Positions 84 to 55,814 of a stretch of DNA of 64,000 nucleotides are shown here, piece after piece. Made by a program: the position numbers and the translations under genes. The stretch is from positions 37,271-101,270 of the forward strand of contig VMGC01000003.1 in the NCBI GenBank assembly GCA_007376385.1. The letters run 5' to 3'. The stretch's first letter is position 1. Each line of letters starts with the position of its first letter. The notes beneath the pieces were generated by a model. The model was not told where the DNA came from. It searched no databases and saw nothing but the letters and a program-made list of their open reading frames with translations. The DNA comes from Parcubacteria group bacterium Gr01-1014_8. Its GTDB lineage: Bacteria; Patescibacteriota; Minisyncoccia; Phycocordibacterales; UBA2100.

Positions 84-968
84 CTAGCGGGCATCCAAGG
101 ACTTTTCTGCATCAATGAAGGATTGTATGTCCCCTCCGAGCACTTTTTCAACGTCCCTGCGTTCATGCTCCGTTCTGTGGTCCTTCACCAATTGATATGG
201 ATGGAGCGTGTATGAACGGATCTGACTTCCCCATTCTATCTTTGTCGAAGTGCCTGCCGAAAGTCCTCGCGCCTCCTTATCTTGTGCTTCTTGCCGCATT
301 TTAAACAGTTTCCCTCGAAGCATTTCAAGCGCTTTTTCTCGATTTTGGAGTTGACTCCTCTCGCTCGTGACATGCACGGAGATTCCAGTCGGTTTATGTG
401 TCATTCGCACCGCCGTGTCCCGCTTGTTCACATTTTGTCCGCCTGGACCACCTGAACGTGCAACGGTAATTTCAAGCTCTTGCTCAGGAATGTGCGATTC
501 GCCGACATCGGGTAATTTCGGCAATATCTCAACTAACGAAAAAGAAGTTTGCCTCTTACCTGCAGAATTAAACGGGGACATGCGGACGAGTCTATGAACG
601 CCTGCCTCTCTTTTTAAAGCTCCGAAAACACCGGAGCCCGCTATCTCAAACGAGACGCTTCGGTATCCTCCCATTGTATTTTGATTTGAATCAATAAGTC
701 CTGCCTGCCATCCTTTAGATGCCGCATACTTTCCATACATTTCAAAAAGAATGCGCGAGAAATCCTCCGCATCGTCTCCCCCAGCTCCAGAAACTATCGA
801 CACTATCGCATCCCCTTTGTCGTAGCCTTCACTCCCTGCAAGCTGTTGTTTCAAATGTTGATACTCCTTCAATATTTCCTGCGCTTTATCTTTATTGCTC
901 CAAAAGTCCGGCGCTCTCATCGCTGTCTCAATATCCCCAATTCTTTTTTCGATAAGTTCTTTTTGCAT
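84..968 (-). CDS. prfB: peptide chain release factor 2 (compact form, no programmed frameshift visible)
   Basis: Translation carries the SPF tripeptide ([15 protein letters not shown]) and the GGQ motif ([11 protein letters not shown]). The N-terminus is about 23 aa shorter than E. coli RF2, and the ATG sits 2 nt after a tRNA 3' end. Confidence 0.85.
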
Positions 969-969
969 A

Positions 970-1045
970 TGGAGCCACCTCCCGGGCTTGAACCGGGGAC
1001 CTACCCCTTACGAAGGGGTTGCTCTACCAACTGAGCTAAGGTGGC
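970..1045 (-). tRNA. tRNA-Thr (anticodon CGU), CCA encoded
   Basis: Hand-folded cloverleaf: acceptor GCCACCT/AGGTGGC, D-arm GCTCAGTTGGTAGAGC, anticodon loop TTCGTAA, T-arm CCCGG-TTCAAGC-CCGGG. Confidence 0.85.
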
Positions 1046-5242: not shown

Positions 5243-5316
5243 TGCTGGGGGACGGGATCGAACCGTCGACCTAGCGCTTATGAAACGCTCGCTCTAACCG
5301 ACTGAGCTACCCCAGC
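5243..5316 (-). tRNA. tRNA-Met elongator (anticodon CAU). Could be tRNA-Ile2 if lysidinylated.
   Basis: Acceptor GCTGGGG/CCCCAGC, anticodon loop TTCATAA, T-arm GACGG-TTCGATC-CCGTC. Confidence 0.8.
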
Positions 5317-5556: not shown

Positions 5557-5629
5557 GTTGCGGGGGCGGGACTTGCACCCGCGACCTTCAGGTTATGAGC
5601 CTGACGAGCTACTACTGCTCCACCCCGCT
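5557..5629 (-). tRNA. initiator tRNA-fMet (anticodon CAU)
   Basis: Near-identical architecture to E. coli tRNAfMet (AGCGGGGTGGAGCAG...CTCATAA...CCCCCGCAAC) with an unpaired 1:72 (A:A). Confidence 0.8.
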
Positions 5630-25715: not shown

Positions 25716-27884
25716 ATGAACGCCTCCGATACCATCACCGCGCATTTTCGCCTCACTAAGCCACAAATTGCGGCTCTCCGACGACTTGGACTAATAACTA
25801 TTGCTGATATCTTGCGCCATTTTCCTGCACGCTATGAGAGAGCCGGCGAATCATCAGACATCTCCCATTTGGTAGCGGGACAAAAAGTAACCCTCTATGG
25901 AGAGTTATCGAAACTTGAAGCAAAGCGATTATGGAAAAGTCGCCGCACAGCAACAGAAGGTATCTTCGAAGACGCGACCGGAAAAGTGAAAGTGCTCTGG
26001 TTCAATCAACCTTACATCGCAAAAATGGCGCCGCAAATGCAGCTTGTTAAATTAACAGGTTCCGTTGCCGGCAAAAACAAACCATATATCACTAATCCTG
26101 AAATTGAGACGTTGCCACCAGGCTTCATACCTCCGGTGCAAAGTGAAAAATTGTTCAACGTGGCACGATCTGAACCAACACCAACCTCCATTTTCCCCGT
26201 CTATCCGGAAACGCGCGGTATTACGTCTCGTTGGTTCTTTCACGCCTTGGAACGCATTTTTGGATCGAACACACATATCACGCTCGAAGATCCTCTCCCA
26301 AGTAATGTACGAGAAAGATACCACCTACCCGATCTTTCTACATCGCTTATGTGGGCGCATAAGCCGGAAAAGGAATCGCATGCAGAAGTCGCGCGAAAAC
26401 GTTTTGCGTTCGAAGAAATTTTTGTGCTCAACGTCATGCGTGCGAAAGAACGCGCAGAAAATGACGCACTGCCTTCATTTCAAATAGATAATGCAAAAGA
26501 ACATGCAGTGCATTTTCTCGAAAGCGTGTCGTTCAAAGCGACGCGCGCGCAGCATGTAGCGATAGAAGACATCCTCGCTGATCTTAAGAAAAATCACCCG
26601 ATGGCACGGCTCCTCGAAGGTGATGTTGGAAGCGGCAAAACCCTTGTCGCCGCAGCGACTGCATATGCGATCGTAAATTCAAGACCTCGAGGACAGACCT
26701 TCGGCACGCTCCAGGTCGGTTATATGGCGCCGACCGAGATCTTGGCAACGCAGCATTTCCAATCGTTCATCGAATATTTCCGACATCTGCCGATTAATAT
26801 TGCCCTCATCACTGGTAGTGGATGTAAAAAATTCCCGTCAAGATCCCACCCCGAAAAAGCAACAGATATCTCACGCTCGCAATTGTTGAAATGGGTAGCG
26901 AGCGGCGAAATAGCGATGCTCGTCGGGACTCATACGCTCATCCAAAAGGCGGTTCAATTCAAACACCTCGCATATGCCATCGTAGACGAACAGCATCGGT
27001 TTGGCACAAAGCAAAGGCGTGAGCTCGCACGAAAGGGCGACAAAACGCCACATTTCCTCAGTATGACCGCAACCCCCATACCGCGCACGCTGGCCCTCAC
27101 GATGTACGGCGACCTGGATCTATCCATTCTGGATGAGCTACCGCCTGGACGCGCAAAAATAACTACCCGTATCATCAAACCGAACGAACGCAGCCTTGCA
27201 TACGAGGCGGTAAGAACAGAACTTGCAAAGGGAAGGCAGGCGTTCATCATTTGTCCTCGCATCGAAGAGCCTGACCCGACAAAACTGAACGCACTGCAGG
27301 CAAAGTCCGCAAAAGCAGAGGCAAAACGATTGAAAGCAGAGATATTCCCCGAGTACCGCATAGGCCTGCTTCATGGCAGCGTGAAAACAAAAGAAAAAGA
27401 CGAGGTCATGCGAAAATTCGCCGCACACGAAATAGATATCTTGGTTGCAACATCCGTCGTAGAAGTCGGCATTAACGTCCCGAACGCAACCGTCATGCTC
27501 ATTGAAGGAGCTGAGCGGTTCGGACTTGCTCAGTTGCACCAATTACGCGGACGCATCATGCGTTCCTCGCATCCGCCGCTGTGTTTTCTCTTGCCTGAGA
27601 AAAAGGGCGAAATGGCAATGAAGAGGTTAAAGGCGTTAGAAAAAAGCGATAACGGATTTGAGCTCGCAGAATCAGATCTCGAGACGCGGGGCGCAGGCGA
27701 TCTCATAGGACGAAAACAATGGGGCATGACAGACCTCGGTATGGAAGCGCTGAAGAACATCAAACTCATCCGCGCTGCGCGCATCGAGGCTGCTGCGCTC
27801 ATCAAAGAGGACCCCGGCCTTTCAAAGCATTCTGCACTCAAAAACCGTGTAGCGTCCACGTCTGCGACATCACATCAAGAATAA
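25716..27884 (+). CDS. recG: ATP-dependent DNA helicase RecG
   Basis: N-terminal wedge domain, Walker A DVGSGKTLVA, DEQH box (VDEQHRFG), 722 aa. Confidence 0.9.
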   Translation: MNASDTITAHFRLTKPQIAALRRLGLITIADILRHFPARYERAGESSDISHLVAGQKVTLYGELSKLEAKRLWKSRRTATEGIFEDATGKVKVLWFNQPYIAKMAPQMQLVKLTGSVAGKNKPYITNPEIETLPPGFIPPVQSEKLFNVARSEPTPTSIFPVYPETRGITSRWFFHALERIFGSNTHITLEDPLPSNVRERYHLPDLSTSLMWAHKPEKESHAEVARKRFAFEEIFVLNVMRAKERAENDALPSFQIDNAKEHAVHFLESVSFKATRAQHVAIEDILADLKKNHPMARLLEGDVGSGKTLVAAATAYAIVNSRPRGQTFGTLQVGYMAPTEILATQHFQSFIEYFRHLPINIALITGSGCKKFPSRSHPEKATDISRSQLLKWVASGEIAMLVGTHTLIQKAVQFKHLAYAIVDEQHRFGTKQRRELARKGDKTPHFLSMTATPIPRTLALTMYGDLDLSILDELPPGRAKITTRIIKPNERSLAYEAVRTELAKGRQAFIICPRIEEPDPTKLNALQAKSAKAEAKRLKAEIFPEYRIGLLHGSVKTKEKDEVMRKFAAHEIDILVATSVVEVGINVPNATVMLIEGAERFGLAQLHQLRGRIMRSSHPPLCFLLPEKKGEMAMKRLKALEKSDNGFELAESDLETRGAGDLIGRKQWGMTDLGMEALKNIKLIRAARIEAAALIKEDPGLSKHSALKNRVASTSATSHQE

Positions 27885-29327: not shown

Positions 29328-29666
29328 TTAAAGCTTAAAATACTTTTTAACCGCCGCAACATCCCCCGCTATCGCGGCTTTCAGGCTTTCTTCTGTATCA
29401 AATTGCGTTGTCTCCCGAATTTTTTCGCGTAGTTCGACGGAAATCTCTTTACCGTATAGATCACCGCTGAAATCAGGCAAATATGCTTCGAGCACTTTCC
29501 TTTCCTTATTCGCAAAGACGGCCGCAACATACGTCCTTCCATCTACGCGTACCTGAGCAGCGTAAACGCCGGAGAAATCGCCCTCAAGCGGAATATTGGC
29601 CGTAGGGAATCCAAGGGTGGCACCATACCCCTTTCCTTTTTGTACGATGCCGGAGAATTTTTTCAT
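29328..29666 (-). CDS. riboflavin kinase (monofunctional, ORF track start 29702)
   Basis: GFPTAN flavokinase motif and E...VEL...R signature, about 112 aa. Confidence 0.6.
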   Translation of the reverse strand: MKKFSGIVQKGKGYGATLGFPTANIPLEGDFSGVYAAQVRVDGRTYVAAVFANKERKVLEAYLPDFSGDLYGKEISVELREKIRETTQFDTEESLKAAIAGDVAAVKKYFKL

Positions 29667-29912
29667 AACAATCCGCCCACAAGGACACTTTGGAAACACC
29701 ACAAGAGTACTTCAGAAAATATACTCGTGCCACTCGTTATTTTCTTGGTCACACCTCAAGGGTACTTCCATTTTTCTAAGCCGGAGTACCGGCAAGAAAA
29801 ATTGGTCGCCCACGGTTTTCCAACGGGCTTCGCCCTGCCTTCCTCCACGGGAAACAAAGTGTTTCCCCGACCCCCTTCCTGTCCAAGCGGGCGTCCATTC
29901 ATTTCATTCATG

Positions 29913-29986
29913 TCCGCCCGCTTGGACTCGAACCAAGGACCCTCGAGGTATAAGCTCGATGCTCTAACCAACTGAGCTACGGGCGG
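29913..29986 (-). tRNA. tRNA-Ile (anticodon UAU, reads AUA)
   Basis: Acceptor CCGCCCG/CGGGCGG, anticodon stem ATCGA/TCGAG, loop CTTATAC (anticodon TAT), T-arm CTTGG-TTCGAGT-CCAAG. Confidence 0.65.
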
Positions 29987-30104: not shown

Positions 30105-31073
30105 CTAGCGTATCAACTCCGAAAGCGACTTGCCTTCGTGCAACCGTTCGATCCCCTGCGCAACGAGTTCCGCAAGAGGAAGCACCGTAATTTTCACGCG
30201 TTTTGATTTTAGAAGTTCCGGGTCATGAGGAATCGAATCGGTAACGATAACTTCATCGACGGCAGAATCGTCAAAAGCTTCAATGACCTTCCTTGGATTC
30301 GACGCGAACACGGCATGCGTTGCGTAGCAGAAGATCTTTTTTGCGCCCGCTTCTTTTGCCGCCTCTGCATCGGCAATCATCGTGCCGCCCGAATCGATTA
30401 TGTCATCTACAAATAGCACGTCTTTCCCCTCAACAGAGCCGATTATTTTTATAGACTCACGCTTTACCTGTCCGGGAGCAGAACGGCTTTTAGAAAAGAC
30501 CACGAAATCTTCATGCCCGAGCCTTCTGGCGTACGCTTCTGCGCGCACCGCGTTTTTATCAGGAGACGCCACGATTGAAGACTCCGAGAGAATATTTTTC
30601 AAATATGGAACCGTCACTGACGACGAATAGAGATGATCAACCATCAGAGGATGAAAAAAACCAGCGGTCGGTTCCGAATGAACGTCAAAAAGAAGTGCTC
30701 TATCGGCGCCTGAATGCGCGAGGAAATCGATGATGACCCTTGCGCTCGTCGCGACACGCGGCCTGTCTTTGCGGTCTTGCCGATTATAGCCAAGGTAGGT
30801 GGGAACAAGCGTGATCCTTCCGGCTGACGAATCGTGCGCGGCTTCCGCAAGAAGCACCATCTCAAGGATGTTTTCTGCAGGCGGGTTAGTCGGGTTAATG
30901 ATGAATACATCCGTGTCTCGCACGTTCTCCAGTATCTGCACGCGCACCTCGCCGTCATTGAACCTCGCGACCTGTGCTTCGCCGAGCTTAATACCAAGGC
31001 GCTTACACACTGCCTCTCCCATCGCTTGCCCGGCAACTCCGGTAAATATTTTGATGGGCCTGTCGTGGTTCAT
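30105..31073 (-). CDS. prs: ribose-phosphate pyrophosphokinase (coordinates ±1-2 nt)
   Basis: PRPP-binding loop VDDIIDSGGTM and the Prs N-terminal domain. The ORF track gives a TTG start at 31112, and the ATG start is about 13 codons in. Confidence 0.9.
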   Translation of the reverse strand: MNHDRPIKIFTGVAGQAMGEAVCKRLGIKLGEAQVARFNDGEVRVQILENVRDTDVFIINPTNPPAENILEMVLLAEAAHDSSAGRITLVPTYLGYNRQDRKDRPRVATSARVIIDFLAHSGADRALLFDVHSEPTAGFFHPLMVDHLYSSSVTVPYLKNILSESSIVASPDKNAVRAEAYARRLGHEDFVVFSKSRSAPGQVKRESIKIIGSVEGKDVLFVDDIIDSGGTMIADAEAAKEAGAKKIFCYATHAVFASNPRKVIEAFDDSAVDEVIVTDSIPHDPELLKSKRVKITVLPLAELVAQGIERLHEGKSLSELIR

Positions 31074-31080
31074 GTACCCC

Positions 31081-32229
31081 TTAGCGTACCGCCTTTGCCA
31101 CCTGCTTTGCAACCCGTTTATCGAACATATCGGGGAGAATTTTTTGCGTTCCTGGTTTTTTTATGAGACCTGCAATGGCCTTCGCCGCTTTTATTTTCAT
31201 CTCGTCGGTGATCCGTCTCACACGGTTGTCGAGAGCCCCGCGAAAGACTCCTGGAAACGCGAGTGAATTATTGACCTGGTTCGGGAAATCAGAGCGACCT
31301 GTTGCGATCACCTTTGCTCCTCCCTTTTTCGCTTCATCAGGCATTATCTCAGGCAACGGGTTTGCCATCGCAAAGATGATCGGGTCTCGCGCCATTTTCT
31401 TTATCATTGCTGCGTTGATAACGCCCGGTCTCGAAAGTCCCAGAAACACATCCGAATTTATGAGAGCTTTAGAAAGATCTCCTCCGCTCTCCGCAAAAAT
31501 AGTCTTGTTTCTTATGAGCTCTTTCTTCGTGGAATTGAGGTCATCTCGCCCGCTCCAAACGATACCCGTACTGTCGACAGCGAGTATCTTCACTTTTGGC
31601 GCATATCGCTTCAACAGCCGCATCGTCGCAACTCCTGCCGCACCAACGCCGCTTACCGTCAACGTGCATTTGTTCATATCTTTTTTCACGACTTTCATCG
31701 AATTGATGAGCCCTGCTAGTACGACTATTGCCGTTCCATGCTGGTCGTCATGCATGACCGGTATGTCAAGCGCGTCGATGACCCTCTGTTCGATCTCAAA
31801 ACATTTCGGCGCCGCAATGTCTTCCAAGTTGATACCGCCGAATGCCGGAGCGATGCGGATCACCGTATCCACGATGGCATCCGCGTCTTGGGTATCGAGA
31901 ACTATAGGTACAGCGTCGACATCTGCGAACGTCTTAAAAAGCGCGCATTTCCCCTCCATCACAGGGAGCGCGCCCAGCGCGCCAATATTTCCCAGCCCTA
32001 GTACCGCCGATCCGTCTGATATAACGGCGACCATGCGGCCTTTCATTGTATAGATGCGGGCATCCTGCTTATGCTTTGCTACGTGGCTGGATACCGCAGC
32101 AACACCCGGCGTATACACAAGGGATAGGTCGGCTCGATTCCTCACGGGAGCGGCCGGCAGTATTCGTATCTTTCCGCCAAGTTTCTTGTGAAGTGCGAGA
32201 GCCTTTTTGGCGTTGTCATTTTTTTTCAT
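31081..32229 (-). CDS. NAD(P)-dependent malic enzyme (ORF track start 32298)
   Basis: Malic-enzyme N-terminal domain (YTPGVA...GLGNIG) and an NAD-binding domain, about 380 aa. Confidence 0.85.
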   Translation of the reverse strand: MKKNDNAKKALALHKKLGGKIRILPAAPVRNRADLSLVYTPGVAAVSSHVAKHKQDARIYTMKGRMVAVISDGSAVLGLGNIGALGALPVMEGKCALFKTFADVDAVPIVLDTQDADAIVDTVIRIAPAFGGINLEDIAAPKCFEIEQRVIDALDIPVMHDDQHGTAIVVLAGLINSMKVVKKDMNKCTLTVSGVGAAGVATMRLLKRYAPKVKILAVDSTGIVWSGRDDLNSTKKELIRNKTIFAESGGDLSKALINSDVFLGLSRPGVINAAMIKKMARDPIIFAMANPLPEIMPDEAKKGGAKVIATGRSDFPNQVNNSLAFPGVFRGALDNRVRRITDEMKIKAAKAIAGLIKKPGTQKILPDMFDKRVAKQVAKAVR

Positions 32230-34106: not shown

Positions 34107-36098
34107 TTAAACAAGCGGCTGATGCTCGATGTCTTCCTTCTTTTTTGGAACAATTCCGTGCGCGATGAGGATCTTTTCGAATTCTTCTCGTTCGATGGTC
34201 TCGACTTCAATGAGTTGCTTTGCGATAGCGTCCAAAACCTTGCGATATTTCTTCATGACGTCTTCTGCCCGCTTGTATGCGCCCTCGACTATCTTTTTCA
34301 CTTCCGAATCTATCGCGGCTGATACTTCCTCCGATAACTCTCCGGGTTCGATACCAGCACCAAAAAGTGTCCGGCCAGGCGCAGCTTCGAGCGCGACGGG
34401 CCCCATCTTGTCCGACATACCATACTTGGTGACCATGTCGCGCGCCAGCGCTGAGAGAACCTGCAGGTCATTTGATGCTCCTGTCGTGATGTCGTTGAAG
34501 ATCATCTTTTCTGCGATGTACCCGCCAAGAGAAACAGCGATATCATCCAAAAATTCCAGTTTCGATTGCATGCGTCGGTCTTCAAGCGGAAGTTTGAGCG
34601 TGTATCCTGCAGCGCGCCCGCGCGAAATGATAGAAACTTTGTGTACGGGGTCCGCATACGTCAAGACCGACGCAATGAGCGCATGTCCCGCCTCGTGATA
34701 CGCCGTTATCTCCTTCTCTTTCTTGTTAAGCACGTGGCTCCGCCTCTCTGGTCCAAGCATCACCTTCTCTATCGAACGAATGAGGTCGTATTGTGTCACT
34801 TCCTTTCTGTCCTCGCGCGCAGCAAGGATTGCAGCCTCATTCATAAGATTCGCCAAGTCCGCGCCTGAAAACCCCGGGGTTCTCTCTGCAATGACCATAA
34901 GATTCGTATCCGGCCCCATCGGTTTCTGCCTCGCGTGTATCTTGAGGATCGCTTCGCGATCCGACCTGTCCGGCAGATCGATAGTTACCCGCCTGTCGAA
35001 TCGCCCGGGACGAAGCAGAGCGGGATCAAGCACGTCCGGACGGTTCGATGCCGCCATGACGATAACTTTTTCATTCGGTTCAAATCCATCCATCTCGACG
35101 AGTATTTGGTTCAACGTCTGTTCGCGCTCATCATTTCCCCCTCCCACTCCAGAACCACGAACTCGCCCGACAGCGTCTATCTCATCCATGAACACAATGG
35201 CCGGTGCGGCTTTTTTCGCGGTTTGAAATAAGTCACGTACGCGCGAAGCGCCGACACCCACGAACATCTCCACAAATTCAGAACCGGATATTGAAAAGAA
35301 AGGAACACCTGCTTCACCCGCAACCGCTCGTGCTAAGAGCGTCTTTCCTGTTCCAGGCGCGCCCATCAAGAGAACACCCTTGGGGATACGCGCGCCTATC
35401 TGAATGAACTTTTTTGGATTCTTCAAAAAGTCGACTATCTCTGCAAGTTCCGCTTTTGCTTCTTTTGCACCGGCAACATCTGCGAACGTAACTTTTTGAA
35501 CCGTATCTTCCGGAGAAATAAGACGAGCCATCGAGCGACCAAAAGTGAATGCTTGCATGCCGGCACCCCTCACCTGCCTTGAAAGGAACCACATGATGCC
35601 AAGAAGAAGCAAAACCGGGATTAAAAGCGGCGCGAGCGTGAGAAACCAAAAGCGCGCGCCGCCCTGGTCCTGTATCTCTATCTTTATTGCCGCAATCTCC
35701 TCCGGTGAAAGTCCGTAACGCGCTAAGGTCTCGGTAAGCGGCGCCTCTCCTTCCTTCTGCGAAGTTTTTTCACTTTCATCTTTGTATGTTGCCTTGATAG
35801 TGTCACCTTCAACGGTGAGAGACACTACTTTGTCATCGCGAATGTCATTGGCAAGCTGCGATATTGCTATCTCATCCGCCCCGCTCTCAATATATTTGCG
35901 AACTGCCGAATAGCCCGCTGAAAGTACGAGAAAAACTGCGAACGCAACTGCTAGCTGCATCCAAATACCCGGTCCTTCCGACGGAGGAACGGCGGGTTTT
36001 TTCCCTTTTTTTCCGTGCAGATCGCCCGGAGTCATTTCTTCGGACATAGACAGCGCATTATACATAAATAGCTTGTCGCAGCTAGTTTGCGGCGACAA
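34107..36098 (-). CDS. ftsH: ATP-dependent zinc metalloprotease FtsH
   Basis: Two N-terminal TM helices, AAA Walker [20 protein letters not shown] zinc motif. 663 aa. Confidence 0.95.
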
Positions 36099-36154: not shown

Positions 36155-36598
36155 ATGTCGCTGATAGATAACAAGCGCGGGCTCTTCGATTACTCGGTTC
36201 TTGAAGAACTCGAGGCTGGTATCGAGTTGTTTGGCTGCGAAGTGAAATCTCTTAGAAACAAACAAGGCTCCTTGAAAGGCGCTCGCGTCGTTGCGCGCGG
36301 CGGCGAAGCATATCTTGTTGGCGCTACCATACCTGCATGGCAAATGGCGAACGCCCCCAAGAGCTATGATCCGGAGCGACCGCGCCGATTGCTCTTAAAT
36401 CAGAAGGAAATCGCCCATATTGCCTCCGCAGAGGGGGAAAAGGGATTGACAGCAGTGCCGATTTCAGTGTATAATAGAGGGCAACGATTGAAGCTCGGCA
36501 TTGCTATCGCGCGCGGGAGGAAAAAAGAAGATAAACGTCATACAATACGTGCGCGCGAGGAGGAAAGAAGGATCGAGAGAACGAAAAAGCGGAAATAG
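36155..36598 (+). CDS. smpB: SsrA-binding protein
   Basis: SmpB fold with a K/R-rich C-terminal tail. The tmRNA gene lies 290 nt downstream. Confidence 0.9.
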   Translation: MSLIDNKRGLFDYSVLEELEAGIELFGCEVKSLRNKQGSLKGARVVARGGEAYLVGATIPAWQMANAPKSYDPERPRRLLLNQKEIAHIASAEGEKGLTAVPISVYNRGQRLKLGIAIARGRKKEDKRHTIRAREEERRIERTKKRK

Positions 36599-36889: not shown

Positions 36890-37277
36890 GGGGGTGACTG
36901 GTTTCGACAGGAAATTCAATGTGCTTGTGTGCAAGACGGAAGTGAGAACCTTCCTAAAAAATCTCAAACTCTAAGTGCAAACAAAACTGCACGGGGGGTT
37001 CTTTCGCCGATTCAGGCGAAAGACCTCGGCCTCGTTTTCGCTTAATCGCCCAAACGACCGTTCGTTCAGCGGGTACTCGATACCGTTGACGCGAGCGTCA
37101 TAACCATCGAGTCCGGTTTCTATTTCACTCCGAGTAGAGACTTAAAGAAAGAGAGTTAGCCGACGTATGCTTTCGTTCATCTTCTACATACATCGGCGAA
37201 TCTTCAAGATGAACTACGTCTTGTAGACGCGCCTGTGCATCATTTCTTGGACTCGAGTTCAATTCTCGACACCTCCA
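36890..37277 (+). ncRNA. ssrA: tmRNA (one-piece SsrA); tag ORF 36977-37045 encodes ANKTARGVLSPIQAKDLGLVFA
   Basis: 5' end GGGGGTGACTGGTTTCGACAGG, tRNA-like T-arm TCGAG-TTCAATT-CTCGA, 3' acceptor CACCTCCA pairing with the 5' end including the G3:U70 Ala identity pair. Resume codon GCA in an AAAAAATCTCAAACTCTAAGT|GCAAAC context like E. coli. Confidence 0.8.
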
Positions 37278-37335
37278 CTCGATTCGCCTCTCGCTAACGC
37301 TTGAGGCTCGCTCGTGGCAAGCCACCAGTCAATAC

Positions 37336-45205: not shown

Positions 45206-47857
45206 CTACCGAGGCCGCGTTCCGGACTCCTTGGCTATGTACGAGGCAAGGCCGCCAGGTCTCGAGTAAGCGTACACGTCTTTTATTCCCATATCGTGGG
45301 CGAGCATCAAAACCATCTCTATCAATTGACTCGAAACCGGTGCATCCGGCGTTATCACGATATCGTCCGAAGGAGTCGGATATTTGAGAAGCATGTTGTA
45401 TCCAAGAGAGCTTTCGTCTTCCGGTCTGCTATTAGGAATAACATCAACAAGTGACGCGCCCTCCCTCTGTCCGCCTTTTGGTTTCTTGTGGAATCGCATG
45501 ACCGGATCATGCCCGGCATGAAGGTACTTTCGAACCTCCTCGGCATTTAGGGTACGCGTTACTTTTGGGATCGGCTTTTGCTGATAATCGGACGAGCAGA
45601 TAGATATGCAGACGAGAGCATTGCCATGAGGATCGAGAACGGCAGGCGTCAATAATGCATCATAGGTCGTATGCAAGAGTGCGTTGGCTGAAAGGCTTGT
45701 GCGTGCGATCGCTATCTGCCCAAGAAGGTTATCCTTTTCATCAGCGGCAAGAATGACAAGATGCTTCTGTATGTTCTTTTCATACTCGCTCTTCTCCGGC
45801 GAAAGATTGTCCCAGCACTGTCGGTACAACTCATACGAGGGAGCCATCCATCGTGAATATCGGTGAAGAATGGTAAACCGGATTATCGGTTTCTGGACTC
45901 CTCGGCTCGGAGATGTGGAAACTGTGTTTTCCCACCTCCCTCGCTCTACGTCGCCGGTAAAACGACGTGCCGGCATTTTGAGAAGTCCGAATATTGATTC
46001 AAAACGCTCGTAGGGCAATGTCTTCTTCAAAACGCTCCGCTGCACTTTGCCCGTCGACGTCATCGGCAATTCGTCAGCGGAAAAAGAGGTGAGATACTTC
46101 GGCGTCTCATATGCGCTTAAGTACGCCGTGCCGAATAGAAGCGACAACTTGAGCCGACGTTTGGCCTTCTTCTCATCTGTACCCGCTTTCCAGCAAATGA
46201 CCGCGCCCGCCTCTTCTCCGTAGCGCTCATCGGGAACAGCAACAACGTACACCTGGTCGATCTCAGGAGATATCTTTTTCAAGGCATTCTCAAGAGCAAC
46301 GGGCGAGATGTTAACCCCGCCCTTGATGATGATCTCCCGCTTGCGGCCCTTCAGATAGAAGAATTTCTGCTCGCCAACGACCTTAAAATATCCGATGTCG
46401 CCCGAGAGAAAATATCCGCCTGCCTGCCGCGTCCGACCAGCGCTATATTCACGTCTTAACCATTTTCGACCAAACCCTGTTTTTAAGTTTTTCTCCCGCT
46501 GTACCGCTTCTTTCAACGATGGAAATTCTTCGTGGTGAATAATTCCTATCGGTTTATGCTTTTTGGTGTGCTCGGCGGCTATACCGTTATAATGTTGTCG
46601 CCATCGTTCATGTATATCTTGAGTTTGACCGATATAAAATGAACCATCATCACACTTGATGACATAAACATAGAACATTTCTGGTCGCGGCGCAGGCAGG
46701 TCACGGATGGCCGGCTCATTCGTAACATACCCCTCCATAACGGCAGGCCCGCGTATCACCAGTTCACCTTCTTCTCCTTCACCGAGAAAGTTTCCTTTCT
46801 CATCCGATATCTGCACGTCGGCCCATGACATTGCCGAGCCAATAGAATTTTCCTCTATCAGTTTCTCGTATAGACCAGGGGGCAGTCCCATAGGTACCCC
46901 GGTAACGCGAAGCGCTGTTTCAGTCTGCCCATATCCTTGGTAGAGCGGAATATCGAATTTCGTCATGAACTCTTGCATCGTATGCACGACCACAGGAGCC
47001 GAGCCTATTTGGATGCGATTGAGCCGCAATCCTTTTTTAACGAGCGCGTAACTCTCGGAGCGTCCTACTTGATCGAACAGGATGGATTGCACTATTGATG
47101 TGCAGGTTGCCTGACTTTTCGCAGCCTGCTGCCAGAAATGTGAGTTTGAGTAATTCGGCGTGATCGCAATGCTGCCGCCTGCGAGAAGCGCCGACAGGCA
47201 AAATGTGGTGGAATTTATGTGGTGCAACGGGAGGTTTACCAGAAACCTGTCTTCTTCTGTCATGTGAAGCCATTCCTTGATGCCTTCTGCGTTCACAACA
47301 AGGTTATTGAGAGTCAGTTTTGCTCCTTTTGGATACCCTGTAGTCCCTGATGTAAATAAAATAAGGGCACAATGTGAAAGACCGGATTCCCAGGCTACCG
47401 GTCTATCTGTAATATCGGCAAATCCCGCAAATTCCTGGACTTTGACTTCTTTCAAAAAAATACTCTCAATATTTTTAAGCGCCTCCTTTTCTGCTATCAA
47501 TAATGTTGCGTTGTTTATTTTTAATTTGTATTGATACAACTCGCCGGTATCTCGCTTAGTATCGAGTGGAACAGTTACGACTCCGATACTCCACGCAGCC
47601 CAGCTTATTATGAGGAGTTCGGGCGAATTCTTAAATGCGAGAGCTACTCTATCGCCTCGTTTGATATCAAGCGCGTATAAATAGAGCGCAGCCTGTTTGA
47701 TTTTCTGCAGCAATTCTTTGTACGTGATCTCCCCCGAGATCGTTCCTTCGTGATCACACGAGAGGAGCGCGACTTTTCCCGGATTCTTTTGCGAGAGAGC
47801 AGAAATGTGCGAGTAGAGGCTTTGTATGGAAGCATGCTGCATAACAATCATCCTCAA
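45206..47857 (-). CDS. AMP-dependent synthetase/ligase (ANL superfamily) with an in-frame GIY-YIG nuclease domain insertion and a roughly 280-aa C-terminal domain of unknown function
   Basis: AMP-binding motif LFTSGTTGYPKGA, core GYGQTE, and the C-subdomain motif GGYFLSGDIGYF...GRKREIIIKGGVNISPVALE. Between them, about aa 388-478 are a complete GIY-YIG module (FYVYVIKCDDGSFYIGQT...R...E...N). The ORF is continuous, 883 aa. Confidence 0.7.
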   Translation of the reverse strand: MRMIVMQHASIQSLYSHISALSQKNPGKVALLSCDHEGTISGEITYKELLQKIKQAALYLYALDIKRGDRVALAFKNSPELLIISWAAWSIGVVTVPLDTKRDTGELYQYKLKINNATLLIAEKEALKNIESIFLKEVKVQEFAGFADITDRPVAWESGLSHCALILFTSGTTGYPKGAKLTLNNLVVNAEGIKEWLHMTEEDRFLVNLPLHHINSTTFCLSALLAGGSIAITPNYSNSHFWQQAAKSQATCTSIVQSILFDQVGRSESYALVKKGLRLNRIQIGSAPVVVHTMQEFMTKFDIPLYQGYGQTETALRVTGVPMGLPPGLYEKLIEENSIGSAMSWADVQISDEKGNFLGEGEEGELVIRGPAVMEGYVTNEPAIRDLPAPRPEMFYVYVIKCDDGSFYIGQTQDIHERWRQHYNGIAAEHTKKHKPIGIIHHEEFPSLKEAVQREKNLKTGFGRKWLRREYSAGRTRQAGGYFLSGDIGYFKVVGEQKFFYLKGRKREIIIKGGVNISPVALENALKKISPEIDQVYVVAVPDERYGEEAGAVICWKAGTDEKKAKRRLKLSLLFGTAYLSAYETPKYLTSFSADELPMTSTGKVQRSVLKKTLPYERFESIFGLLKMPARRFTGDVERGRWENTVSTSPSRGVQKPIIRFTILHRYSRWMAPSYELYRQCWDNLSPEKSEYEKNIQKHLVILAADEKDNLLGQIAIARTSLSANALLHTTYDALLTPAVLDPHGNALVCISICSSDYQQKPIPKVTRTLNAEEVRKYLHAGHDPVMRFHKKPKGGQREGASLVDVIPNSRPEDESSLGYNMLLKYPTPSDDIVITPDAPVSSQLIEMVLMLAHDMGIKDVYAYSRPGGLASYIAKESGTRPR

Positions 47858-55202: not shown

Positions 55203-55814
55203 CTATTCAAGAATCCCGTCCAGGTTCACATCGTACAAAATTTCTTCATGAATGATGCGATAGTTCGTCAATTCCTCCGGTTTGAACCAATGAGCTATCT
55301 CCACGTTCGCCTCCTCAACCGAGCCAGAAGCGTGGGCAAGGTTTCGGACGGCACGCCCGTCTTCATCCGCCATCTGGTATGAATCCAGGACGAAATCGCC
55401 TCGAATCGAGCCAACGTCTGATGTCAGCGGCTCTGTGCCTCCCGTCAGCTTCCGTACTATCTTAACGGCGTGAGCTCCTTGCAAGACCATCGCAACAACA
55501 GGTCCCGAGGAAAGATACTTCTTTAAGTTTGTAAGAATTTTCGCGGTAATTTCAAGTGGGTCCTGTGAAGGAGGTGTCATCCCCTTGTCCAAATACCCCT
55601 TGATGGTCTTTTCTCCCGTGACCTTTCTCCAGTTTGGATCGAGCGTGTAGTGCGTTTCGACATGCTCTGGTGTTGGCACCATCATTTTCATGCCGACGAG
55701 CTTTAAGCCCGAAGACTCGTAGCGATTGATTATCTCTCCTATCAAAGAGCGTTGAACCGCATCTGGCTTAATAACAACGAGCGTGCGTTCTTTGCTGTGA
55801 TGGTCTTGCGGCAT
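55203..55814 (-). CDS. ndk: nucleoside diphosphate kinase (long form with insertion)
   Basis: Active-site His context NLAHASGS and the N-terminal ERTLVVIKPDAV. 203 aa, so it carries insertions relative to the 140-aa canonical Ndk. Confidence 0.8.
   Translation of the reverse strand: MPQDHHSKERTLVVIKPDAVQRSLIGEIINRYESSGLKLVGMKMMVPTPEHVETHYTLDPNWRKVTGEKTIKGYLDKGMTPPSQDPLEITAKILTNLKKYLSSGPVVAMVLQGAHAVKIVRKLTGGTEPLTSDVGSIRGDFVLDSYQMADEDGRAVRNLAHASGSVEEANVEIAHWFKPEELTNYRIIHEEILYDVNLDGILE

Follow-up and report, generated by a model that had tools for sequence, protein, structure and literature searches.

The window (the whole stretch of DNA analyzed, 64,000 nucleotides of Parcubacteria group bacterium Gr01-1014_8) contains a genuine, canonical tRNA gene with a UAU anticodon. 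We read it, with a probability of about 80%, as a functional minor tRNA-Ile(UAU) of an ultra-small, Kaiserbacteria-like CPR host from groundwater, in which it would be the sole decoder of AUA codons and would replace tRNA-Ile2(CAU) together with lysidine synthetase (TilS). Under this reading, IleRS would charge the tRNA with isoleucine, U34 would pair directly with the A of AUA, and the cell would have no other tRNA for this codon.

Assignment to the host rests on several observations. The FtsH protein encoded in the window is 100% identical to the NCBI FtsH of Gr01-1014_8, and the next matches, at 80 to 92%, are from “Candidatus Kaiserbacteria” and Paceibacterota. The gene content (type IV pilus genes, a TraG-like coupling protein, and small housekeeping genes) fits CPR/Patescibacteria, the S10-spc ribosomal operon lies just outside the window, and an ENA groundwater assembly contains the same DNA as well.

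A core tRNA gene of Patescibacteria in a conserved position

Seven RNA genes are present in the window, including a tRNA-Ile(tat) that ARAGORN places at 29912-29986 on the minus strand. The Rfam model RF00005 matches 29913-29986 on the same strand over model positions 1 to 71 of 71, with 70.4 bits (E value of 2.4e-13; gathering score of 29), which is the top score among the six tRNAs of the window, and every stem is free of mismatches and of non-canonical pairs. The gene and its anticodon are located as follows.

29913-29986, minus strand: tRNA-Ile(UAU) gene, 74 nt (ARAGORN; Rfam, 70.4 bits; covariation of the acceptor and T stems among 94 distinct homologues)
29950-29952, minus strand: anticodon UAU, ATA on the plus strand (direct reading; ARAGORN anticodon position 35)

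Arranged by structural element, the tRNA reads CCGCCCG UA GCUC AGUUGGUUA GAGC A UCGAG CUUAUAC CUCGA GGGUC CUUGG UUCGAGU CCAAG CGGGCGG A. Its 7-nt anticodon loop is C32 U33 U34 A35 U36 A37 C38, and other features include C1-G72, C2-G71, C4-G69, U12-A23, A37, C38, and the discriminator A73; the gene encodes no CCA and has no intron. The initial annotation had reported a tRNA with anticodon UAU in the loop CUUAUAC and had left the strand unstated; ARAGORN, Rfam, and the covariation described below all bear out a genuine tRNA, and its strand is minus. Two features of the molecule are noted in passing: pair 1-72 (29986/29914) is C-G, which is unusual, and the anticodon loop combines C32 with C38 (window position 29948), a position at which the E. 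coli IleRS identity element is A38.

The same tRNA is widespread among relatives of the host. At least 60 GTDB species representatives, almost all labeled Patescibacteria, Paceibacterota, Nomura-, Taylor-, or Zambryskiibacteria, or Minisyncoccia, share an exact 43-nt core that spans the D arm, the UAU anticodon arm, and the variable loop, and the 28-nt anticodon arm with T34 was recovered from at least 120 metagenome contigs. The tRNA had initially been framed as a rarity, a description that is not supported for Patescibacteria: in several classes of the phylum, tRNA-Ile(UAU) appears to be the rule.

From other genomes and metagenomes we extracted 172 full-length copies, 94 of them distinct, and the alignment of these sequences formed the basis of a covariation test. 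Stem cells are paired in 99.4% of cases across the 94 distinct copies, and changes on both sides of the helix occur at 11 pairs (seven of seven in the acceptor stem and four of five in the T stem), amounting to 246 compensatory cells. The covariation score is 0.346, compared with 0.110 for shuffled alignments (none of 500 shuffles reached 0.346) and no more than 0.049 with slid partners. Nothing can be learned in this test about the D and anticodon arms, which the search pattern fixed as identical. The discriminator A73 is invariant in the 94 copies, C2-G71 and C4-G69 are each conserved in about 95% (C4-G69 in 89 of 94), and pair 1-72 is C-G in 57 (about 60%) and G-C in 28 (about 30%). The gene is thus far beyond chance and under strong purifying selection.

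Its genomic position is likewise conserved, and the following neighbors define the locus.

34107-36098, minus strand: ftsH, called product of 652 aa with a start slightly inside the open reading frame (Pfam AAA and Peptidase_M41; synteny)
36155-36598, plus strand: smpB, divergent from ftsH (Pfam SmpB; synteny in relatives)
25716-27884, plus strand: recG, convergent neighbor across the tRNA (Pfam RecG_wedge, DEAD, and Helicase_C; synteny)
30105-31112, minus strand: prs, ribose-phosphate pyrophosphokinase, the direct upstream neighbor of the tRNA in this genome, codirectional and 118 nt away (Pfam)
29876-29898, no strand assigned: inverted-repeat arm whose complement, 29910-29932, is the 3' part of the tRNA (repeat search; lineage-specific)

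The gene order of the clade runs from smpB, which lies divergently upstream of ftsH, through ftsH and tRNA-Ile(UAU) to recG, which converges from the other side. Among 60 related genomic loci compared, ftsH adjoins the UAU tRNA in 45; in 34 of these 45 the tRNA is on the ftsH strand, typically some 15 to 70 nt past the ftsH stop codon, and in the other 11 the tRNA alone is flipped. The window preserves this frame, from smpB at 36155 through ftsH to recG at 25716, except that three inserted genes (for an amidohydrolase and malic enzyme, and prs) separate ftsH from the tRNA and two more (for a riboflavin kinase and a PKD protein) separate the tRNA from recG. The conservation of sequence and of position marks the UAU tRNA as belonging to the core gene set, in shared gene order, of a large radiation within the Patescibacteria. 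As separate observations on these neighbors, the riboflavin kinase, directly downstream of the tRNA (29328-29702, minus strand), is a stand-alone domain of 124 aa that lacks the FAD-synthetase half, and the FtsH proteins of three close relatives of the window organism (P0006, P0025, and P0037) are 1,088 to 1,105 aa long and contain an intein domain (PF14890).

In the 34 codirectional loci, a gap of 15 to 70 nt after ftsH leaves little space for a promoter of the tRNA's own. The tRNA of the window probably shares a transcript with the genes upstream of it in the ftsH string, from which it would be processed out. A scan for sigma-70-like promoters found none on the coding strand near the tRNA, including the spacer between prs and the tRNA, although such a scan is uninformative for a CPR organism.

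The inverted repeat at the tRNA comprises 13 perfectly matching nt separated by an 11-nt spacer, complements the 3' strands of the T stem and the acceptor stem, and dominates the predicted fold of the precursor. We considered this downstream repeat as a conserved terminator or processing element and rejected the idea, in that a repeat of at least 11 nt is present in just 5 of 168 homologous loci. Since the tRNA is flipped in 11 of 60 relatives, inverted partial copies of this kind might be scars or substrates of local inversions.

Lysidine system and CAU tRNAs

Searches for the lysidine system covered the window, its flanks, and related loci. No TilS-type domain was detected by Pfam in the 50 open reading frames of the window or in the called genes of the approximately 20-kb flanks (together some 84 kb of the genome), and tblastn with E. 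coli TilS returned nothing at an E value below 1 in the flanks or in 1.2 Mb consisting of the window and 185 related loci, a search in which a single distant query could miss a divergent homologue. In tblastn with E. coli IleRS, ileS was absent from the window, the approximately 20-kb flanks, and the related loci. The classical gene order in many other bacteria is tilS-hpt-ftsH; here and in 28 related loci, it is smpB, not tilS-hpt, that lies upstream of ftsH. The supplementary gene tables of two CPR papers (PMC9530719 and PMC11188291) hold no entries for tilS or K04075. Within the portion of the supplementary table of PMC10936435 that was available, an entry reading “lysidine synthase” proved to be a Prokka mislabel of an amidotransferase.

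The strongest line of evidence comes from a census of 61 complete Patescibacteria genomes, based on the tRNA counts in supplementary Table 2 of PMC13011429 (“Group I introns in tRNA genes of Patescibacteria”), which are given per amino acid and not per anticodon. Because ARAGORN names tRNAs by anticodon, the Met column counts every CAU tRNA; the tRNAscan-SE columns for Ile and Met apparently exclude Ile2 and fMet calls. The 20 genomes with one non-CAU Ile tRNA all possess three or four CAU tRNAs, and of the other 41 genomes, in which non-CAU Ile tRNAs number at least two, 38 possess at most two CAU tRNAs and three possess three. Within the Paceibacteria, 15 of 20 genomes have two Ile genes, 14 of these 15 with just two CAU tRNAs. 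A genome whose CAU tRNAs are only an initiator and an elongator contains no substrate for TilS, and since AUA is used, the second Ile tRNA of two-CAU genomes would have to be the UAU species, the census itself being without anticodons.

The two CAU tRNAs found in the window are the following.

5243-5316, minus strand: elongator-type CAU tRNA that is most likely a tRNA-Met, not a substrate of TilS (Rfam, 69.3 bits; sequence features; census)
5558-5629, minus strand: initiator-type CAU tRNA, with an A1xA72 mismatch and A11-U24 (non-pair 1-72 in the Rfam alignment; direct reading)

The elongator-type tRNA has G1-C72, C11-G24, and G4-C69/G5-C68 and is without the C4-G69 pair that is common to the UAU tRNA and the Ile tRNAs of E. 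coli. A comparison with E. coli metT, ileX, and ileV is not decisive at such an evolutionary distance, and the absence of C4-G69 is suggestive of a CAU tRNA that is not an isoleucine tRNA. Together with the neighboring initiator-type CAU tRNA, these features support the proposal in the initial annotation that the gene at 5243-5316 encodes a true elongator tRNA-Met. The Asp-CAU tRNA cluster is also conserved in locus L037. A lysidine-free genome is expected to have two CAU tRNAs, one initiator and one elongator, and if the UAU tRNA replaces tRNA-Ile2(CAU) and TilS, the genes at 5243-5316 and 5558-5629 would be the elongator Met tRNA and the initiator, respectively. The initiator-type tRNA is itself atypical in two respects, having A1xA72 where C1xA72 is usual and just two consecutive G-C pairs (30-40 and 31-39) at the bottom of its anticodon stem.

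Taken together, the TilS searches and the reciprocal pattern of the census make replacement of tRNA-Ile2(CAU) and lysidine by the UAU tRNA the most likely arrangement. That the organism may lack tilS had been suggested at the outset, and we consider it probable: the absence of the gene is observed in the window, the approximately 20-kb flanks, and 1.2 Mb of related loci and agrees with the census, which suggests its absence from the rest of the genome as well.

The alternative that survives best, which we nonetheless regard as unlikely, is that TilS and a tRNA-Ile2(CAU) are encoded elsewhere in the genome and that the UAU tRNA just adds capacity for reading AUA. Such coexistence is documented (PMC3575796), with a redundant role of this kind suggested in Lactobacillus casei, Cyanothece PCC 7424, and Ferrimonas; it does occur in 3 of 41 complete two-Ile genomes, which have three CAU tRNAs; and our view of the genome covers about 84 kb. 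It sits poorly, however, with the 14 of 15 two-Ile Paceibacteria that have just two CAU tRNAs, with the presence of both an initiator and an elongator CAU tRNA in the window already, with the lack of any TilS-like sequence in the window, the flanks, and 1.2 Mb of relatives, and with the position of smpB, which in this clade occupies the usual place of tilS-hpt next to ftsH. The body of the UAU tRNA also has no C34 form in the metagenome collection: the 28-nt arm with C34 gave no matches there, versus at least 120 for T34, and no C34 ancestor or sister of the tRNA was present in the viral collection either.

Meaning of AUA and identity of the tRNA

The use of AUA, which the initial annotation had proposed as a check, is strikingly high. 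In the 46 long open reading frames of the window, AUA accounts for 361 of 1,116 Ile codons (32%, or 21.6 per 1,000 codons), and its share is 31.7% in 18 ribosomal-protein genes of the same organism. The corresponding A-ending codons of other amino acids are used far less in the same 46 reading frames (CUA and UUA, 6 to 7% of Leu codons; GUA, 18% of Val codons), so that the preference is specific to AUA and is not a general bias toward A in the third position. The G+C content of E. coli is the same (50.7%), yet AUA makes up 0.5% of the Ile codons of its ribosomal-protein genes and 7.7% of those of its other genes. Relatives of the window organism use AUA for an average of 24% of Ile codons, a share that drops as G+C content rises.

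The meaning of the codon was assessed on codon-aware alignments of 75 FtsH and 64 RecG genes. The residues aligned with AUA match those aligned with AUU and AUC (about 50% Ile, 18% Val, 14% Leu, and 3% Met). At AUA sites, the residue in E. coli FtsH is I in 30%, L in 23%, V in 17%, and M in 10% of cases, a distribution that is indistinguishable from that at AUU/AUC sites and unlike that at AUG sites, where M accounts for 32%. These alignments show AUA to behave as a frequent, ordinary isoleucine codon in the window organism.

The isoleucine identity set of E. coli, as reportedly defined by Nureki et al. in 1994, consists of A73, C4-G69, U12-A23, C29-G41, A37, and A38. The UAU tRNA departs from this set in having C38 in place of A38 and G29-C41 in place of C29-G41, although the E. 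coli rules may not be those of the host. With A73, C4-G69, U12-A23, A35, U36, and A37 in place, the tRNA has features that would suit charging with isoleucine by IleRS. We take the domain DUF5915 to mark type-2 IleRS. An IleRS with DUF5915 is present in another Paceibacteria MAG, according to the available portion of the supplementary table of PMC10936435, which hints at the same type of enzyme as in Bifidobacterium and Neorickettsia. IleRS features that would fit U34 are an Arg or Lys at the position of E. coli W905 or an enzyme of type 2.

A second alternative is that the anticodon does not match the identity of the tRNA, which would be charged with another amino acid (e.g., Met), AUA being reassigned as in mitochondria. 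Codon reassignment is known in CPR bacteria, UGA having been reassigned in Gracilibacteria/Absconditabacteria, and C38 and G29-C41 do deviate from the E. coli identity set, but A73, C4-G69, U12-A23, and A37 fit an isoleucine tRNA. We reject the reassignment of AUA as very improbable on the grounds that AUA columns in FtsH and RecG, also in the comparison with E. coli FtsH, behave as AUU/AUC columns do and unlike AUG columns.

Genes for tRNA-Ile(UAU) are frequent on phages, and an inverted partial copy of the 3' end of the tRNA lies 11 nt downstream, but a pseudogene (the outcome that would have spoken against the initial annotation), a chance tRNA-like sequence, or a tRNA recently acquired from a phage or mobile element is hardly conceivable and is ruled out by the top Rfam score in the window, the pervasive compensatory covariation, the fixed place that the tRNA has in dozens of species between two housekeeping genes, ftsH and recG, and the search for phage counterparts, which yielded no IMG/VR match and no phage record with more than about 84% identity to the UAU tRNA.

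Known counterparts and wider meaning

The tRNA-Ile(UAU), as the putative sole decoder of AUA, can be set against five kinds of known systems, as follows.

(i) The tRNA-Ile2(UAU) of Mycoplasma mobile (Taniguchi et al. 2013, PMC3575796) shares with the window tRNA a genomically encoded UAU anticodon, the role of AUA decoder, a reduced genome, and an A37 available for t6A. M. mobile itself lacks tilS, whereas for the window organism this would follow from the searches and census above. M. mobile, in contrast, is AT-rich; its U34 was shown biochemically to be unmodified, and it possesses an adapted type-1 IleRS (Arg865) and a ribosome that rejects AUG. In the window organism, the G+C content is 50% and AUA is as frequent a codon as AUU and AUC, and the tRNA is conserved over a very large radiation, as opposed to one species. 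Only on its own ribosome does the M. mobile tRNA discriminate between AUA, which it reads, and AUG, which it does not (PMC3575796).

(ii) In Bifidobacterium and Neorickettsia, a tRNA-Ile(UAU) likewise replaces the CAU tRNA and lysidine in bacteria without tilS. These tilS-less bacteria have an IleRS of the eukaryote type (PMC3575796), and their tRNA is named tRNA-Ile3(UAU) in PMC8450103; unlike the window organism, they belong to another phylum, and the origin of their tRNA was presumably independent.

(iii) The canonical tRNA-Ile2, in which TilS converts CAU to LAU, performs the same task of making AUA mean Ile and not Met. The acceptor end of E. coli ileX has C4-G69, C5-G68, and A73 in common with that of the UAU tRNA. 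The window gene, in contrast, encodes T34 and not C34, and the switch in identity needs no base modification.

(iv) A suppressor of a tilS deletion in Bacillus subtilis, a G34U mutant of tRNA-Ile1 (Kohrer et al. 2014, PMC3919564), also reads AUA with a UAU anticodon. This tRNA, whose U34 is unmodified, showed strong binding to AUA but weak binding to AUG when tested with a bacterial ribosome, and it allowed near-normal growth (PMC3919564). The suppressor is a laboratory mutant of a GAU tRNA, whereas the gene in the window is natural, ancient, and dedicated.

(v) The cytoplasmic tRNA-Ile(UAU) of eukaryotes and the tRNA-Ile3(UAU) of the archaea Nanoarchaeum and Korarchaeum also provide a genomic UAU for AUA, and in the two archaea it replaces the CAU/agmatidine system (PMC8450103). 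In the eukaryotic tRNA, U34 and U36 are made into pseudouridine and an intron is spliced, unlike the intronless gene in the window.

By analogy with M. mobile and the B. subtilis suppressor, misreading of AUG would likely be avoided through an unmodified or minimally modified U34, competition from tRNA-Met, and properties of the ribosome or the anticodon loop. With AUA at about 20 per 1,000 codons, even in ribosomal proteins, decoding by the UAU tRNA, if true, would call for an efficient means of holding UAU off AUG, for which a new modification of U34, the unusual C32/C38 loop, and a CPR-specific feature of the ribosome are candidates.

Bacteria with a UAU tRNA and without tilS were tallied at nine species in 2013 (PMC3575796); by 2021 the tally was 17 genomes, all belonging to Bifidobacterium, Mycoplasma, or Neorickettsia (PMC8450103, the tRNAscan-SE 2.0 paper), and a paper from 2025 still gives M. 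mobile as the example. A full-text search of the accessible literature found no paper linking lysidine, tilS, or tRNA-Ile(UAU) with Patescibacteria/CPR. The kind of system, a tRNA-Ile(UAU) that replaces tRNA-Ile2(CAU), is therefore known, the lineage is new and probably very large, and the likely spread of the system over several CPR classes appears to have gone undiscussed, though visible in a published supplementary table.

For the window alone the result is modest, that of an ordinary core tRNA gene of its lineage. We would put at even odds the wider proposition that decoding of AUA without lysidine is the normal state in most classes of Patescibacteria (namely, Paceibacteria, Microgenomatia, ABY1, Dojkabacteria, Doudnabacteria, and part of Gracilibacteria), well beyond the roughly 17 genomes tallied. 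TilS is regarded as a drug target and as a bacteria-specific enzyme that is essential and almost universal. Should AUA be read by a plain UAU tRNA in a large part of the CPR, a sizeable share of bacterial diversity would be lysidine-free, TilS would not be near-universal in Bacteria, and the evolutionary picture of AUA decoding would shift. TIGR02432 is one of the GTDB bac120 markers, and annotation pipelines and marker sets that expect TilS would under-score such genomes. The lineage would also offer a natural system for how U34 tells A from G under a heavy load of AUA.

Several other features of the window merit mention. An RF2-type release factor of 294 aa (84-968, minus strand) has SPF and GGQ motifs, but its match to Pfam PCRF begins at profile position 86, so that most of domain 1 is missing; a tRNA-Thr(CGU) at 973-1045 (minus strand) lies directly upstream, so that a frameshifted N-terminal part would have no space. 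An AMP-binding, acyl-CoA synthetase-like enzyme (45206-47857, minus strand) contains a GIY-YIG nuclease domain at residues 394 to 462, between AMP-binding and AMP-binding_C, and a free-standing GIY-YIG open reading frame of 85 aa lies between map and purD in locus L062 (13307-13564). The nucleoside diphosphate kinase of 203 aa (55203-55814, minus strand) has a Pfam match that is split in two, which suggests an insertion in the NDK fold. Finally, a tmRNA gene (36890-37280, plus strand; Rfam, 139 bits) immediately follows smpB on the same strand, and its tag peptide, ANKTARGVLSPIQAKDLGLVFA, is long and ends in VFA instead of the usual LAA.
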